Virus record (IMG/VR): IMGVR_UViG_3300046328_000321
Location: 1 to 64,000 of that record
Source: a virus
Reading direction: 5' to 3' (one strand)
Length of the DNA stretch: 64,000 nucleotides
Made by a program: the position numbers and the translations under genes. A model generated the notes under the pieces. It saw nothing but the letters and a program-made list of their open reading frames with translations, was not told the origin of the DNA and did no database searches. This document shows positions 2,933-63,981 of this stretch, in pieces (the first letter of the stretch is position 1; the number at the start of each line of letters is the position of its first letter).

Positions 2933-5900
2933 TTAAGTGGCTCTTCTTCTGAGATCTAAAGCTGGATTAGGTAAAATTTCTTTACCTGCATTAGGTATGC
3001 GACCAGTGGAAGGAGTTTCCTGTACGGGAGTACTCTTTTCTCCACTACCAGATCTGTTAGACATAAGTCCATGTATTTTACTAAGAACTTCCAACATTTG
3101 TTTTTGGACATTCAGAGAATCACCTAGATTACTATTCACAGTATTAAGATCCACACCAATATTTTTACTGGCGTCTGCGACAGGTTTTGAAGCTGTCTGT
3201 AGATCTGGAGCTTGCTGGAACGTAGTAAAAGATTTCTTTTGAGGGACATCTTGTTGATATGAGGTATTCTGAAAACCCGCAGAATTACTTATAGGACCAT
3301 AAGACTGTTCTATAGTTGTAGAACCAGAATCAGTTAAAACTTTAGCAACAGGAACATTTGCTTCTTGTTTAGGTTTTAACATACCTGCTACTTTACCACC
3401 TGCCTTAACCACTTTCTTTTTAAAGATCTCATAGATCTCTGCAAGTGTGCGTGGTCTGCGACCTTCAAAGAATATTTCTTTATTAGACGATGCAGCAGCT
3501 GGAAATAGTTGCGAGCCTGGTACATTAGGATGAGTCGACAAGAATCTACTTGCTCCATTCACACCTAAAAAATGTGCTAGATAAAGATCTAAGTCGTCAG
3601 GATTTTCTTTGACTTTTTTCAATATCTCTATATTACTCTTTATATACTCGGCAGCCAATAAACTACTGGCTCTAGGGTCTGTGGGAGAAACATCACCTAA
3701 ACTATATTTTTTACCGTGTTTTCTAAGCTGCTCTCTCCAAGTGTCTCTGGTAAATTGAAATAAACCTGTAGCAGAAGACCTTGGATTCTTTGCGTCTGGA
3801 TTCATATTCGATTCAATTGTGGCAAATGTTTTTAATGTCTTTGCATCCACACCTGTTTGAGAAGCAGCTTTTTCAATAATACTACCAATGTCGGTGGATC
3901 CACTATCTTCAGAATTAGTTAATTTACCATCTTCTGAATATTTCAATATTGTAGAAGTAGCATCTTTTGCTACTTTAATAGAAGATTCACCATACATGCC
4001 TGTAAAATTACCCATGGCATCATGTATGCCAATATCACCAATAGAAACATTTTCTTTAATTGGTGTTTTAGTTTCCTTAGTGGTTGTAGTTTTATCATCA
4101 GTCTTAGATGTATTCATGGTCTTATTGACCAAACTAATTTCATTTTCAGTTAACTGATTGTTAATTGTACCTGTGGTAGTAGCTTCTAATAAAGCTCTTG
4201 CCATGTCATAATTTCTACCTTTGAGACCACCTTGCATGATGGTACCATAACCACCACCGCCTCTACCGACACCATATTGAATTAAATTGGTAGCTGTGTC
4301 TGGATCTTTTATAGATCCCGTTAGAGATAACTGAATACCAGCTGGTTCTACGTGCCAAGGTTCAGAACCCACAGGACGAGTAAATCCGTACTTCTTGGTC
4401 AGTCCCATTTTTTCTAATTCAGCCATGATACCTCTGTCGATATCCATAGCCAAACCAAATTCATGTAAAGATTTTCCAGGAGGTGCTGACGTGCCAGGAT
4501 TTCTTCTATATATCTCAGCTTGTTTAGCATAAGAACGATATGCATCATTGATAGTGATCTTCTTACCAGTGATCTCCCCATATTCTTGAGCCATAGCCAG
4601 AAGATTTTTATACATCTCTGGATTCATATTCTCTATATTAACACCAGTCTTCAAACTGATATATTGCATACCTGTGCTACCATCTCTCATCGCACCATTG
4701 GCCAAAGGAGGAGTCTTCACACCACCTACAGCACCGGTTTGATTACTTACAGCACCTGCTTTGTCATTTACCTTACCATCTTCAGAACCCAAAATGTTAG
4801 GATCTACTGAGATAGGTTTTTTTGGTTTAATAATATTTTTTTCTTCTGGTGTGGGCAGCATCGGAGTATGTTTCTTAGAAACTTTCTCGTCAGTATGACC
4901 GGTATTATTACCCATAGCGTCTGTTTCAGACATTGGCATTTTTATTTCATCAGAGACTTTAGCAATCAAAGTTTTGATGACAGATCTTACCAACTCTCTG
5001 TTGTCAGATAACGTGGGTATTTCATTTATAGGGCTAACGTTAGCATCGTGAGGACCATCGTCAAAAGCCGTTAGTTCCAGATACTTTTTACGCTCTTCTG
5101 GTTTTAACTTTTCAATTTTATTTAAGGGACTACCTTTTCTAATACTGTTTAAAACTCTTAAGTGGTTAATGAAGAAGAATTTAAAACGATCTTTAAACCA
5201 TGTTTGTAGTTTTTGAGTTTGTTCTTTATTTTCTTCACTGACTCCAAATATAGAAGCCACGTCTTTCCATTCCAAAGAAGTGTTAATTTTAACATCATTG
5301 CCTGAAACAACAACGTGTTTATCTAACAACATATTTTCAAGCTCTATCATTTTGTAATGATTCTGAGCATGTTTGGGTTCATTGTTTAAACCGTATTGAT
5401 GCACACGGTAGAGCTCATACTTAGACAGATTGTTTCTGGTCAGGTATTCATAACCTTTATAAGTACCATAAGCGGTAGCGCCTATAACCATAGCCGCAAG
5501 TACTGGAGGAGATAGCAATAAAGTCATAGCAGTTCCACCCACAGCAGCAATAGCGCCAAAGGTGCTACCCATGGTACCAGCAGCCAACACGCCTGTGATA
5601 GCTGGCAGAGCCTTGGCTATAGTAGGCAGGTTAGTAACAGCAGCGGTACCTAAAGTAAATATACCTTTATCTAGAAATTTACTTATAAAACCAACATCTT
5701 TTACTAAAGACCAGACACCACCAACAAGCGATCCTGCACCAGAAATAAGTATGCCAAGTTTATCTATGATCCCTTTAAGCATACTACCTTCTTTATACTT
5801 TACGGTCATATCTGGTTCAGCAGCATCTTTACTTTTTTTAGATTGAGTAACTTTACCATTACCAGCCTCAACACCGTTTCGCATTTTGGTCAGTCTGTCC

Positions 5901-49228: not shown

Positions 49229-49350
49229 CCTGAATAAAATCCCCTAAGTCAAAAGCTTAGGGGATTTTTTTTTTCAACACCTTGCTATAATTTTTTGGTC
49301 ATATAAATTTTACTTGACTTATTGTGCCATCTCACCTAAAGGAAAGTATC

Positions 49351-49779
49351 ATGTCAATAACCGATAAAGTAAAATCGTTGCAAACAATTGTGGATTCTCA
49401 GTTTGTTAAGACACTTTGTCTTATGGAACATGAGGATGTGTTAGAACTGGTAAATGAACATAGTTTTAATAATGAATTTAAACAAGCCATTCTTGCTATG
49501 GATGCAGCAATCCATGCAGTATTATGGTCTCGTGGTACTTATGATGCTCTGACCATATCTCATTTTAATCAAATTCAATCTGATAAGAATATAAAACTAG
49601 CGATGAGGAATGTATCTGTAACAGATGCATTCATGGAACGAAACCGTGAGAAGTTAAATTCAGCTCCTTCTCATGTTGCTCGCTGGCAAATTATTCTTGA
49701 ATCTGAATTTAATAACGTTGTGTTGATGGATCGTACCGTTGCTATTATTTTGAAAGGTGAAAAAAATGGTAAAAGGTAA
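49351..49779 (+). CDS. Hypothetical protein
   Basis: Likely start MSITDK after AAGGA. Confidence 0.6.
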   Translation: MSITDKVKSLQTIVDSQFVKTLCLMEHEDVLELVNEHSFNNEFKQAILAMDAAIHAVLWSRGTYDALTISHFNQIQSDKNIKLAMRNVSVTDAFMERNREKLNSAPSHVARWQIILESEFNNVVLMDRTVAIILKGEKNGKR

Positions 49780-50488
49780 ATTAATCGTTATAGAGGGTGT
49801 GGACGGTGTGGGTAAAAACACACAAGCTAAATTCATGACAACCTTGTTATCAGAGATAGTTCCTGTAAGGTTTTTCTCATTTCCTCAATACCATACAGAA
49901 ACTGGATTAGAGATTTCAAAATATCTTAACGGCAAAGCATCTGATCTTACAAGAATGCAAATTGCTGAACTCTATGCTAATGACAGGTTAGCTGTAAGAG
50001 ATGAAATCAATGAATGTCTTGACAAAGGTATTTTTGTAATATGTGATCGATACGTCATGTCTAACATAGCGTTTCAATCATCTTGGTATCTTAGCCGTGA
50101 TGGAGCTGGTGAGGAACAAGTCAAACTAGCTCAGAAAATAATTAACGATATTGATGAGTTAGAATATCAGCAAAATCAAATGCCTGTTCCTGATTTGACA
50201 TTGAGTTTGATTCTACCTGTAGATGTAACTATGGTTAGGGTTACAGGTAAAGATAGACGAGAATACACAGATGCAATTCAAGATATTCACGAAGTAGATG
50301 TGAAGTTACAAACACATGCTGCTGATTTTTTCAGTAAGATGGCTAACATGGGATTTTCAGAAACAATTAAAGTGATCAATTGTTGGAATTTTGTTAAAAA
50401 AGAACAATATTCTAAACAAGAGATTCATGAGAAAATTTGGTTTCCAAATGTTGTCAACCTCATTAAGAGTGTACGCGGGGATCGGTAA
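49766..50488 (+). CDS. tmk: Thymidylate kinase
   Basis: P-loop IEGVDGVGKNTQ, FP, LYANDR and ICDRY motifs. Confidence 0.9.
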   Translation: MVKGKLIVIEGVDGVGKNTQAKFMTTLLSEIVPVRFFSFPQYHTETGLEISKYLNGKASDLTRMQIAELYANDRLAVRDEINECLDKGIFVICDRYVMSNIAFQSSWYLSRDGAGEEQVKLAQKIINDIDELEYQQNQMPVPDLTLSLILPVDVTMVRVTGKDRREYTDAIQDIHEVDVKLQTHAADFFSKMANMGFSETIKVINCWNFVKKEQYSKQEIHEKIWFPNVVNLIKSVRGDR

Positions 50489-50993
50489 CAGAGATACACC
50501 TGAGTTCTACCTGAATAGAATGCGTAAAATAGCAACCCTTCTAGAGTTGCGAGGTTATGTGTTGCGATCAGGTGGGGCAGATGGAGCAGACTCTGCTTTC
50601 TACGAAGGTCTGTCAGACAAAGCCAACGCTGAGATATATTTGCCATGGGATGGTTATAATGGTCATTCCCATAAAGCATGTATCCCAGCGGAAGCTTACA
50701 GATTGGTGGAAAATCTGGTGCCAGACTTTCAATACAGATCACAAGCTGTACAACATCTGTTTGCCGGAAATGCGCAACAGATATTGGGTAAAGATCTGGA
50801 TTCACCTTCTGAATTTGTGATCTGTTATACCAGAGATGGTTATACAGGTCCTCACGACAGGAGCTTCAGGACAGGTGGTACCAAGATAGCCATAGACTTA
50901 GCAGTCAGTATAGGTATACCTGTGTTTAATATAAAAAGGATAGATCATCATAATACAGTGGTGAACTACTTCAACGATGATCACCTCCTTTAA
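50448..50993 (+). CDS. SLOG/DprA-like Rossmann-fold nucleotide-binding protein
   Basis: YAGIGNRDTP, LRSGGADGAD, YLPW and GGT motifs. Confidence 0.75.
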   Translation: MLSTSLRVYAGIGNRDTPEFYLNRMRKIATLLELRGYVLRSGGADGADSAFYEGLSDKANAEIYLPWDGYNGHSHKACIPAEAYRLVENLVPDFQYRSQAVQHLFAGNAQQILGKDLDSPSEFVICYTRDGYTGPHDRSFRTGGTKIAIDLAVSIGIPVFNIKRIDHHNTVVNYFNDDHLL

Positions 50994-51084: not shown

Positions 51085-51157
51085 AGTCGTAATTCTCTGA
51101 TGAGTTCTGCGACTTTAAATAAAAGAACGAAACACCGTCCACAAGACGGTGTAAGAA
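51085..51157 (+). ncRNA. Type I hammerhead ribozyme with loop II pseudoknot; predicted cleavage after 51153
   Basis: UUCU-CUGAUGA-GUUCU[GCGACUUUAAAUAAA]AGAAC-GAAA-CACCGUC[CACAA]GACGGUG-UA^AGAA; loop II GCGACU pairs with upstream AGUCGU (51085-51090). Confidence 0.9.
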
Positions 51158-51482
51158 ATGTGTTAGCTTACGGTGATTACACACCATAAATCTTATTGGC
51201 TTATGGTCTAGCTGATGTTCTAACCAAACGTCAAACCGTGTGTCTATAGTTAGTTTCGCGAAAGAATACCCTTGGTCGGGATCTTAGCGCCGCTTCTATA
51301 GAAAGTTGTAAACTCTGGACTTGATCGCTCTAGAGAGCAGCCTATCATCCATTCGTATCTAATATGAGTGGATTTTAGAGTGCTATAAGATCTTACCGAC
51401 TATCAATCTACAGAACAATGTCAGCAGTTTATTCTGCGAAAATGACTTTGGTTCTTGATTGATAGTCGGTATTTTTTTTTTT
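51154..51482 (+). ncRNA. Unknown structured ncRNA downstream of the hammerhead
   Basis: No ORF of 60 aa or more; four nested stem domains; ends in a 15-bp perfect stem (51394-51408/51457-51471) plus a T-run. Confidence 0.65.
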
Positions 51483-63008: not shown

Positions 63009-63035
63009 GGGCGGATGGCGAAATAGGTAGACGCA
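63009..63035 (+). pseudogene. 5' fragment (acceptor strand + D-arm) of a disrupted Leu-type tRNA
   Basis: GGGCGGA-TG-GCGAAATAGGTAGACGC-A; acceptor partner TCTGCCC-A-CCA lies at 63971-63981. Confidence 0.75.
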
Positions 63036-63038
63036 AAA

Positions 63039-63536
63039 ATGGATAAAGAAAAACTTCTTGGATTATATCCAGGTTACACTTCTGTTTTGGGACCTTACAC
63101 AAGGCCGGACGGTAGAAAACACGTTATACTTAATAATTCTAACGCTTCTAACGGAACTAAGGGTAAGACTAAAACTATCTCTTACCCCAAAGCCTTAATG
63201 GAAGTTGAATTAAATAAGAAACTCAATCCAGATGAAACTGTCGATCACCATGACAGAGATTTCACTAACGATAACAGTATTAATTTAAAAGTGAAGACGC
63301 GCTCTTTACACGCGTCTGAAGATGCTTTACGAATTAAGGTAGAAGATATTAGATGTCCACAATGTGGAAAATATTTTACACCTAGTGTAAGTCAAAGAAA
63401 TAAAGTAAACAGTATAATTGCTGGTCCATTTTGTAGTAAACAGTGTTCCGGGTTATATGGAACAAATATTCAAAAAGGTATGCAGCCTTTTAAGAGAACA
63501 GAAATTAGAAAATATTACTATCGTAAAGATAAATAA
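63039..63536 (+). CDS. Free-standing HNH endonuclease with C-terminal zinc finger
   Basis: ETVDHHDRDFTNDNSINL....RSLH HNH motif; CPQC and FCSKQC. Confidence 0.85.
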   Translation: MDKEKLLGLYPGYTSVLGPYTRPDGRKHVILNNSNASNGTKGKTKTISYPKALMEVELNKKLNPDETVDHHDRDFTNDNSINLKVKTRSLHASEDALRIKVEDIRCPQCGKYFTPSVSQRNKVNSIIAGPFCSKQCSGLYGTNIQKGMQPFKRTEIRKYYYRKDK

Positions 63537-63559
63537 ATATTTTATTAGAGAACATTGGT

Positions 63560-63889
63560 GGCCCGCTGATGAAATTGGTAGACATAACGGAAAACCAGAA
63601 AGTTAGTCCGCCTTTACTAGTAATAGTAAAGTAAACTGTGGGTGAACTCAGGAGAATCTAAAGCGCAAGCCATGATAATCGTGAGCCAAGCTAGAAGTAC
63701 ACTTCTAGAAGGTGCAGAGACTACTGGAAAGGTAAAGTCCTTTTAATAACCAGCTAGAGCGCCCACTACCGTAATAGAATTTCTATCGGTAAAGAGATAG
63801 TCCATGTCCATTGGAAACTTTGGAACACATGCTTAAAATCCGTCGCTTCCGAAAGGAGCATTCCGGTTCGATTCCGGAGCGGGCCACCA
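63560..63889 (+). tRNA. trnL: tRNA-Leu(UAA), intron-containing (exons 63560-63591 and 63832-63889)
   Basis: Acceptor GGCCCGC/GCGGGCC, anticodon stem ACGGA/TCCGT with loop CTTAAAA, long variable arm, T-arm TCCGG-TTCGATT-CCGGA, A73 and encoded CCA. Confidence 0.88.
63592..63831 (+). mobile_element. Group I intron in tRNA-Leu
   Basis: P3 gtgggtg/cgcccac, P gaactcaggagaa, Q aatcgtgagc, R gtgcagagacta, S aagagatagtcc; terminal G at 63831. Confidence 0.85.
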
Positions 63890-63911
63890 ATGTTCTCTTC
63901 AATCTTTAATA

Positions 63912-63981
63912 CTGCTCGTAGTTAAATGGATATAAAGCTTCTAAGTTTTAGTTCCAAGTTCGATTCCCGTTCTGCCCACCA
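63912..63981 (+). pseudogene. Chimeric pseudo-tRNA: degenerate tRNA-Arg(UCU)-like 5' part joined in the T-loop to the 3' end of the broken tRNA
   Basis: gctcgtagttaaatggatataa..cttctaa..ccaagttcgattc then ccgttctgcccacca; T-stem and acceptor strands do not pair internally. Confidence 0.65.

Follow-up and report, generated by a model that had tools for sequence, protein, structure and literature searches.

An HNH endonuclease gene and an intron-bearing tRNA-Leu gene lie between the matching ends of another tRNA gene in a phage genome

Homing endonuclease genes are thought to need an intron, an intein or an intergenic site in which to land. The locus described here raises the question of how an HNH endonuclease gene, together with a complete tRNA-Leu gene, could come to lie in the middle of another tRNA gene, of which only the two ends are left. 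The locus is at the extreme 3' end of the stretch that was analysed, bases 1-64000 (the window) of the 113,368-bp IMG/VR virus record IMGVR_UViG_3300046328_000321 (36.9% G+C), and the reading was extended into the following part of the genome (L001, bases 60001-72000). Other retrieved comparison stretches are likewise labelled with L and a number; positions without such a label are window or genome coordinates. The arrangement very probably arose when a homing cassette bringing its own replacement tRNA invaded a resident tRNA-Leu-type gene; that this gene had been resident in this particular phage is what we infer.

The 5' half of the outer tRNA gene (Table 1) consists of the acceptor strand GGGCGGA, the dinucleotide TG (U8-G9), the D-arm GCG/AAATAGGTAGA/CGC and A26. 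The D-arm, with its 3-bp stem and loop of 11 nucleotides (nt), is of the long-arm type (Leu/Ser/Tyr). No anticodon stem follows; the triplet AAA is succeeded directly by the ATG of the HNH gene. The 3' end, located 931 nt downstream, comprises CCCGT (63966-63970), which is the 3' strand of a T-stem, TCTGCCC (63971-63977), the discriminator base A (63978) and CCA (63979-63981). GGGCGGA and TCTGCCC pair at 7/7 positions, with six Watson-Crick pairs and one G-U. Positions 1-26 and, at the other end, the final 16 nt plus CCA are thus preserved, whereas the anticodon arm, the variable arm and the 5' strand of the T-stem are absent. Since it lacks the anticodon arm, the outer gene must be regarded as a relic and not as a working split tRNA. 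The left join is directly after the D-arm, a region (about tRNA positions 26-34) in which the orphan 5' halves of relatives also stop; the right join is inside a T-loop sequence common to a tRNA-Arg and the outer gene.

A first-pass annotation of the window had described a tRNA 5' half ending 3 nt before the HNH start codon, a matching 3' end about 930 nt downstream, the HNH gene and an intron-bearing tRNA-Leu between them, and a fusion of the 3' end, by crossover in the T-loop, to a decayed tRNA-Arg(UCU)-like sequence. The 5' half is present exactly as described, the acceptor pairing given above identifies the 3' end as its partner, and the contents of the insert were confirmed by matches to phrog_14913 and Rfam RF00028 and by ARAGORN in intron mode. 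Alignment with the tRNA-Arg of phage PM2 showed the fusion in the assembled sequence, and it supports the T-loop crossover in that the identity stops inside this loop.

To assess how easily such a pair could occur by chance, the whole 113-kb genome was scanned on both strands for sequences resembling a tRNA start (acceptor and D-arm) with a matching tRNA end (T-loop and acceptor) within 3 kb. Four pairs were obtained, all inside the tRNA cluster: the outer pair (969 nt), the intron-bearing tRNA-Leu, an intact tRNA-Arg(UCU) (64008-64084) and a second split pair (662 nt). The genome contains only four T-loop...NCCA ends, and every one of them has a partner. Analytically, the chance of a 7/7 pairing with at most one G-U was estimated as about 2.7e-4 for a given pair; as each 3 kb holds about 14 loose candidates for a 5' half, this amounts to a chance of about 0.004 per 3' end. 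The analytic estimate was used in preference to a shuffle control, in which chance is overestimated since the true partners turn up again among the shuffled ends. Given this low value and the confinement of the hits to the cluster, chance pairing is unlikely.

The protein encoded in the insert has an intact open reading frame (ORF) with the HNH catalytic motif and a four-cysteine zinc ribbon (CxxC...C...C). In an alignment of 36 sequences D69, H70, N82, C106, C109 and C132 were invariant, H91 and C136 nearly so. There are 181 homologues at E<=1e-10, and homologues carry PF13392; the window protein itself gave no Pfam match at E<=0.01. HNH families were the only matches in Pfam and PHROG, and no GIY-YIG domain was found. 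When a profile of the family was compared with solved structures, it matched zinc-finger segments only, and no solved HNH relative was found by sequence. The enzyme is predicted to cut tRNA-Leu DNA. The sequence AGGT in the D-loop of the outer 5' half (63025-63028) sits 10 nt before the ATG, a spacing that makes it a plausible, putative ribosome-binding site for the HNH gene.

The stop codon of the HNH gene is 23 nt upstream of the inner tRNA-Leu(UAA), which is complete after removal of its group I intron. The intron scored 62.4 bits against Rfam RF00028 (gathering score 50; E 3.6e-15). Only one ORF of at least 30 amino acids (aa) lies wholly within it, an unsupported 34-aa frame. The nuclease is thus not intron-encoded at this locus, its ORF being located upstream of the tRNA 5' exon; rather, a group I intron devoid of an ORF is present in the gene adjoining the nuclease gene, as in collaborative homing.

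Between the inner tRNA-Leu and the outer 3' end there is a decayed tRNA-Arg(UCU) of the T4 type. It has a 5' acceptor strand without a partner (CTGCTCG), a D-arm, the anticodon loop CTTCTAA, the 5' strand of a T-stem (CCAAG) and a T-loop. The D-arm, the anticodon loop, the variable loop, CCAAG and the T-loop can be aligned with the PM2 gene, and five nt are deleted in the anticodon stem. After TTCGATTC the PM2 sequence TTGG-TGAGGGT-A-CCA is replaced by CCGT-TCTGCCC-A-CCA; pairing fails both between CCAAG and CCCGT and between CTGCTCG and TCTGCCC. No tRNA was called in the relic by ARAGORN (default mode) or by Rfam at E<=10.

Table 1. Positions of the features of the nested locus and of the second split tRNA gene, which lies beyond the window
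Feature	Position	Strand	Basis
Outer tRNA, 5' half	63009-63035	+	sequence; nhmmer match to positions 1-28 of a tRNA-Leu(UAA) hidden Markov model (HMM)
HNH homing-endonuclease gene, 165 aa	63039-63536	+	ORF; phrog_14913, E 8e-19
Leader arm of 21-nt perfect inverted repeat	63547-63567	+	100% complementary
Inner tRNA-Leu(UAA), whole	63560-63889	+	ARAGORN intron mode, clean cloverleaf from joined exons
Inner tRNA-Leu, 5' exon: acceptor GGCCCGC, D-arm, ACGGA (anticodon-stem 5' strand)	63560-63591	+	ARAGORN
ORF-less group I intron, 240 nt, position 31/32	63592-63831	+	Rfam RF00028; boundaries ARAGORN
Inner tRNA-Leu, 3' exon: CTTAAAA loop, TCCGT, long variable arm, T-arm, GCGGGCC, ACCA	63832-63889	+	ARAGORN, sequence
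Trailer arm of 21-nt inverted repeat	63878-63898	+	100% complementary
Decayed tRNA-Arg(UCU), T4 type	63912-63965	+	84% identical to phage PM2 tRNA-Arg; alignment
T-loop stretch common to both parents, 9 nt, GTTCGATTC	63958-63966		PM2 identity ends after TTCGATTC
Outer tRNA, 3' end	63966-63981	+	sequence and acceptor match
Second split tRNA, 5' part to first anticodon-loop bases	64101-64134		
Second HNH gene, 189 aa, unrelated to the first	64166-64735		PF13392; phrog_15471, E 8.7e-33
Second split tRNA, 3' part: variable loop, T-arm, acceptor AACCGGC, ACCA	64733-64766		

The association of this HNH family with tRNA-Leu is recurrent. An alignment-based scan of IMG/VR with HNH homologues yielded 52 loci of uncultured phages, which were classified by ARAGORN and with an HMM made from 32 of their tRNA-Leu(UAA) genes. 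In about 50 of the 52, tRNA-Leu sequence touches the HNH ORF. The 150 nt upstream of the ORF gave 41 tRNA-Leu HMM matches in 55 loci, the ORF-internal controls none. Among the upstream matches were 13 orphan 5' halves (ending at HMM positions 26-34), seven 5' exons (ending at 35-38) and 19 complete genes; an eighth 5'-exon locus (L037) was scored in the separate classification. Four layouts were distinguished. In layout A (eight loci) the tRNA-Leu(UAA) has a canonical group I intron that contains the ORF. Layouts B and C both have an orphan 5' half followed by the HNH gene and a tRNA-Leu, which is complete and intron-less in B and intron-bearing in C. In layout D a complete tRNA-Leu precedes the HNH gene, often with an orphan 3' part after it. 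The suggestion of collaborative homing made in the first-pass annotation fits the family, the HNH gene being inside the tRNA-Leu(UAA) intron in the layout A loci and beside an ORF-less intron in the clade of the window.

Both outer halves are present in eight loci, including that of the window. In these nested loci the cognate acceptor strands pair 7/7 in eight cases out of eight, whereas only one of 56 non-cognate combinations does so. In the least eroded of them the outer 3' part starts at tRNA positions 32-36. Nested loci are scattered across the HNH tree, in which the window protein forms a clade with those of L070, L011, L018 and L023 (support 98/96), all of layout C. The closest homologues with full loci, in L011 and L018 (65% and 62% identical to the window protein, respectively), have the same layout as the window. 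Their outer acceptor strands, GCGGGGG/TCCCCGC in L011 and ACCAGGA/TCCTGGT in L018, pair 7/7, and the outer 3' part is retained from the anticodon loop on in L011 and from the variable arm on in L018. The T-stem of both is ACGGG/CCCGT, whose 3' strand survives in the window and is also found in the outer 3' end of L066. The first-pass annotation had named relatives as the place where the two fragments might prove to belong to different tRNA genes; the opposite was seen in L011 and L018. The HNH gene starts 2-5 nt past the 5' half in L018 and in Salmonella phages (see below), and in L011 and L070 after a 64-70-nt spacer with a GGAG of its own.

The cassettes of L011 and L018 are 69-71% identical in DNA sequence to that of the window. 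Among the three loci as many as four positions of the outer acceptor stem vary, with changes on both strands, and the pairing is still complete. The L011 and L018 phages are distant relatives of the phage studied here, with neighbouring genes 30-57% identical and the cluster placed differently. The simplest account of this pattern would be that each phage had, until recently, a functional tRNA-Leu of its own in the outer gene. Differing outer stems around homologous cassettes fit separate invasions of different tRNA-Leu genes. With the outer 5' half of L011 as query, L011 itself was the only match. Among cultured phages the best HNH matches were in Salmonella PVP-SE1-like phages (47% identity), in which the order is as in the window: an orphan Leu-type 5' half ending 2 nt before the ATG, the HNH gene, tRNA-Leu(UAA) and tRNA-Arg(UCU). 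It was considered, e.g. for the Salmonella phage, that an orphan 5' half might pair with the 3' end of the complete tRNA-Leu beside it; this was rejected, as the two do not pair. More distant HNH homologues are found directly 5' of other tRNA genes.

The position of the intron varies among the close relatives. Exon 1 of the inner tRNA-Leu is identical to that of L070 and L071 through position 25 (...GACAT) and differs by one base from that of L018. (L070 and L071, each cut by contig ends, are the two usable loci out of four obtained in a scan of JGI metagenomes.) In the near-identical exons of these three loci a homologous intron is located six nt upstream, at 25/26, where it forms a canonical GACAU/GUGUC P1 helix with U-G at the splice site. 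In the window the last base of the intron is G, and the base before the 5' splice site is an A that pairs with U, as against the usual U-G. In L011, L023, L046 and the eight intron-encoded loci the intron is at the canonical site U34/A35 (numbered 34/35 or 35/36). Three intron positions thus occur within one small HNH clade.

A 21-nt inverted repeat brackets the inner tRNA-Leu and lengthens its acceptor stem by 13 bp of leader/trailer pairing. The same inverted repeat is present with two compensatory changes in L018 (2999-3020 and 3313-3334) and absent from L011. Because of the compensatory changes the helix looks selected; it could be a candidate RNase III-type site, where the pre-tRNA would be released from the message of the HNH gene, or it could help the intron to fold. 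A strong terminator at 64888-64918 ends the whole cluster, both HNH genes included. With this single strong terminator, the cluster is probably read as one transcript, which is processed into tRNAs.

The same cluster contains a second tRNA gene split by an HNH gene (Table 1). An intact tRNA-Thr(UGU) gene in an unrelated IMG/VR contig (L076, 8085-8160) is 97% and 100% identical to the two parts. By comparison with it, eight nt (GTAAGCGA), which take in positions 35-36 of the anticodon, what remains of the loop and the greater part of the anticodon stem's 3' strand, have been replaced by 598 nt carrying the second HNH gene. In intron mode ARAGORN called a tRNA-Phe(aaa) with a 571-nt intron at 64101-64766; this was rejected as a forced fit, the gene being tRNA-Thr(UGU) minus 8 nt. 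As far as gene anatomy goes, this case shows directly that an HNH gene can sit in a tRNA gene with surviving ends, in the very same cluster. A third example was found in phage phiKZ (NC_004629, ~268.8-269.7 kb; L004:2262-3122), where the anticodon loop of a second tRNA-Asn gene holds an insert of about 775 nt. The insert is made up of the annotated 89-nt 'tRNA-Asn' (GUU) and the gp296 HNH gene, whereas the two parts of the interrupted tRNA-Asn gene are unannotated. The insert is absent, and tRNA-Asn intact, in phage KEN51 and at least 20 other phages that are ~99% identical. Taking into account the anatomy of the window locus and these two comparisons, the best reading is that the outer gene was interrupted by a DNA insertion and not by an intron.

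A further arrangement was noticed with homologues of the second HNH gene. In two IMG/VR loci (L012:2883-3560 and L013) such a gene follows a complete tRNA-Arg(UCU) and precedes an orphan T-arm with the acceptor strand CGAGGGT. CGAGGGT pairs with the 5' acceptor GCCCTCG of the complete tRNA; position 5 is then a Watson-Crick pair, whereas with the 3' end that belongs to the tRNA itself, CGGGGGC, it is a U-G wobble. If the complete tRNA-Arg is a chimera of donor and recipient, this is the pattern that would be expected.

The following course of events is proposed for the window locus. On tRNA-Leu DNA that lacks the intron, the HNH enzyme would make a cut or nick somewhere in the interval from the D-arm to the anticodon loop, and the break would be repaired by copying of the donor cassette, with the conserved 5' half providing the homology at the left end. 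Synthesis would pass through the HNH gene and the spare tRNA-Leu into the tRNA-Arg of the donor, from which the recipient would be rejoined through the 9-nt microhomology in the T-loop. The spare tRNA would then take over the lost function. As the intron would split the target of the enzyme, the cassette would presumably be immune to its own nuclease.

Several observations weigh against invasion of a resident tRNA-Leu-type gene by a homing cassette. There is no empty-site allele for this phage, and neither a close relative nor an intact GGGCGGA...TCTGCCC tRNA was found. Searches of IMG/VR with the exact 26-mer of the intact outer tRNA (GGGCGGA...TCTGCCCACCA) or with both outer ends and a gap between them gave no match, and with the gapped ends 185,579 prokaryote genomes gave three matches, about the number expected by chance, none of them a tRNA. 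No close relatives of the phage were detected via the upstream 275-aa protein or in the phage, IMG/VR and JGI collections, and at the DNA level nothing but the core of the intron and the relic of tRNA-Arg gave a match. No other genome showed the fusion of tRNA-Arg sequence to the outer 3' end. The intron of the window, given its position at 31/32 and the A-U at its splice site, may splice poorly or not at all, and if splicing failed the locus would yield no working tRNA-Leu. Moreover, many members of the family adjoin intron-less tRNA-Leu genes, so the intron is dispensable for coexistence of the nuclease and its neighbour.

The lack of an empty site would also be compatible with the whole nested block, outer halves included, being mobile, in which case the halves would be portable homology arms that arrived ready-made and never were a tRNA of this phage lineage. 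The match of the window to L018 in blastn starts within the outer 5' half (63013) and runs unbroken through the HNH gene into the inner tRNA, and in L018 and L011 the tRNA cluster does not have the same position with respect to conserved genes nearby. However, outer stems that differ at up to four positions and remain paired are expected of tRNAs that worked until recently, not of arms drifting with an element, and the insert of phiKZ is flanked by what in the sister phages is the resident tRNA-Asn; we therefore regard this explanation as unlikely. Even less probable is that recombination or deletion among tandem tRNA genes produced the fragments and that the HNH gene is a bystander living in tRNA clusters. 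Such clusters do contain much tRNA debris (e.g. L003, L007, L010), and T-loops and D-loops offer microhomology without any nuclease, but the layout recurs with one enzyme family, in eight nested and eight intron-encoded loci. In at least 13 loci the orphan 5' half ends at about position 26-34, at or shortly before the HNH start, and at a distance of about 120 nt another tRNA is interrupted by another HNH gene, unrelated to the first.

That the outer halves form a working split tRNA, or that the 930-nt insert is a giant intron removed from the RNA, is highly improbable. The acceptor complementarity is perfect over about 1 kb in eight loci, and intron-mode ARAGORN calls such layouts intron-containing tRNAs; the outer gene, however, has no anticodon stem-loop, variable arm or T-stem 5' strand from which a whole cloverleaf could be built. 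As to a giant intron, Rfam detected no ribozyme outside the inner tRNA, the insert consists almost entirely of the ORF and a complete tRNA, and the phiKZ and tRNA-Thr cases are plain DNA insertions. Scarcely any weight can be given to chance complementarity or to chimeric assembly either. T-loops that repeat within 100 nt are a classic site of assembly errors, but the nesting is repeated in seven independent contigs, the chance per 3' end is low (see above), and a mis-join at the T-loop would alter the tRNA-Arg relic only, the outer halves still flanking the cassette. Invasion by a homing cassette is thus the explanation that we prefer.

The general elements of this explanation, HNH genes in phage tRNA clusters and the spread of tRNA genes driven by SegB, are already known. 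SegB is a free-standing GIY-YIG homing endonuclease encoded in the T4 tRNA cluster (PMC2330249; PMC13096335). It is a precedent also named in the first-pass annotation: it recognises the T-loop motif GGTTCRANTCC and cleaves within tRNA genes, and the tRNA genes next to it are thereby brought into phages from which it is missing (PMC2330249). Its ORF is co-transcribed with the tRNAs and processed alongside them (PMC2330249; PMC13096335). SegB resembles the window enzyme in that its gene is free-standing within a phage tRNA cluster. In contrast to the window, however, SegB is not an HNH enzyme, segB lies between intact tRNA genes, and descriptions of it mention neither nested halves of a target, nor a dedicated spare target copy, nor an intron. 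Similarly, the HNH endonucleases F-TflI/II/IV of phage T5 are encoded in its tRNA region (Akulenko et al. 2004, cited in PMC2330249) and, according to the citing sources, their ORFs are interspersed with tRNA genes as here, whereas those sources report neither nesting in a tRNA gene nor linkage to a single tRNA. A homologue of the window enzyme in phage PA11 is annotated as similar to TflI.

Collaborative homing has been reviewed (PMC3984707). The proposed route to mobile introns predicts that relatives of such nucleases are intron-encoded, as those of the window enzyme are. Its known targets are protein-coding genes in which the recipient is simply converted, whereas the target here is a tRNA gene, and two dead halves are left around the cassette. 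In addition, the intron site varies among close relatives of the window (25/26, 31/32, 35/36), and the cleavage specificity is putative. The anticodon region is the specific target of the endonuclease encoded by a cyanobacterial tRNA-fMet intron (Bonocora and Shub 2001, cited in PMC3984707). From what the citing review relates, the two systems have in common a target, a putative one in the window, in the anticodon region of a tRNA and linkage to a group I intron; the tRNA-fMet enzyme differs in having another nuclease fold, in being bacterial and in being encoded inside the intron, where splicing restores the gene and no second copy is needed. The known tRNA-Leu(UAA) intron shares with the window family the host gene and the U34/A35 site used by relatives of the window, but it is ORF-less and mostly inherited vertically, whereas the window intron is in a phage, at 31/32, and linked to a nuclease. 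Literature searches retrieved no description of a cassette of nuclease and spare tRNA nested between matching target halves, nor of HNH-bearing introns in phage tRNA-Leu.

A wider interpretation, which we put forward tentatively, is that an HNH gene with a spare tRNA constitutes a distinct 'intron-less homing cassette', capable of colonising a tiny essential RNA gene without a ribozyme. This would be possible because the cassette brings a replacement copy of its target. The tRNA halves would serve as portable homology arms in jumps between unrelated phages, and a single target, tRNA-Leu(UAA), would hold every stage from the free-standing nuclease through collaborative homing to the intron-encoded enzyme; delivery of spare tRNAs might be favoured by host defences that cut tRNAs. 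The landing site in this case is the middle of an RNA gene of 75-90 nt, and the damage is offset by the passenger copy, which suggests how selfish elements can invade very short, conserved RNA genes. The arrangement would also account for the fragments and the mosaic order of phage tRNA clusters, and the family offers a natural series for testing the origin of mobile introns. According to a 2014 review, all phage introns known at that time were in protein-coding genes (PMC3984707); the loci described here place group I introns and nucleases in phage tRNA genes. Host defences that cleave tRNAs are countered by phage tRNAs, and a tRNA locus can be amplified through SegB when this pressure acts (PMC13096335). 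Cassettes of nuclease and tRNA may thus be units of this arms race.

There is a consequence for annotation as well. ARAGORN in default mode called no tRNA in the window and thus misses the inner tRNA-Leu, and in intron mode it mis-calls the second split gene. Another tRNA missed by ARAGORN, a tRNA-CAU at 64785-64858 (L001:4785-4858), was detected by Rfam (47.5 bits). Near it, at 65788-66387 (L001:5788-6387), there is a gene for a TilS-type PP-loop ATPase (PF01171, E 1.2e-25); the two could be a candidate phage tRNA-Ile2 with its lysidine synthetase. L011 contains the same pair, a tRNA-CAU at 755-830 and, at 1629-2243, a PP-loop protein with 50% identity.

In the interval that separates the tRNA cluster from the PP-loop gene, a 208-aa ORF (64985-65611; L001:4985-5611) with CxxC...CxxC near its N-terminus and no Pfam or PHROG match has 49.8% G+C amid 31-36% G+C. 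It is bracketed by the terminator at 64888-64918 and a terminator-like hairpin with a T-run near 65730-65760, and in composition and setting it looks like recently acquired foreign DNA. In L018, bases 1-2262 and 3991-4278 match window positions 49339-50987 and 51096-51384, respectively, so that its cassette is located between homologues of the genes at 49.3-51.0 kb of the window and a stretch 69% identical to the non-coding region at 51.1-51.4 kb. This match indicates that the non-coding region is conserved and that the tRNA cluster has moved relative to it.

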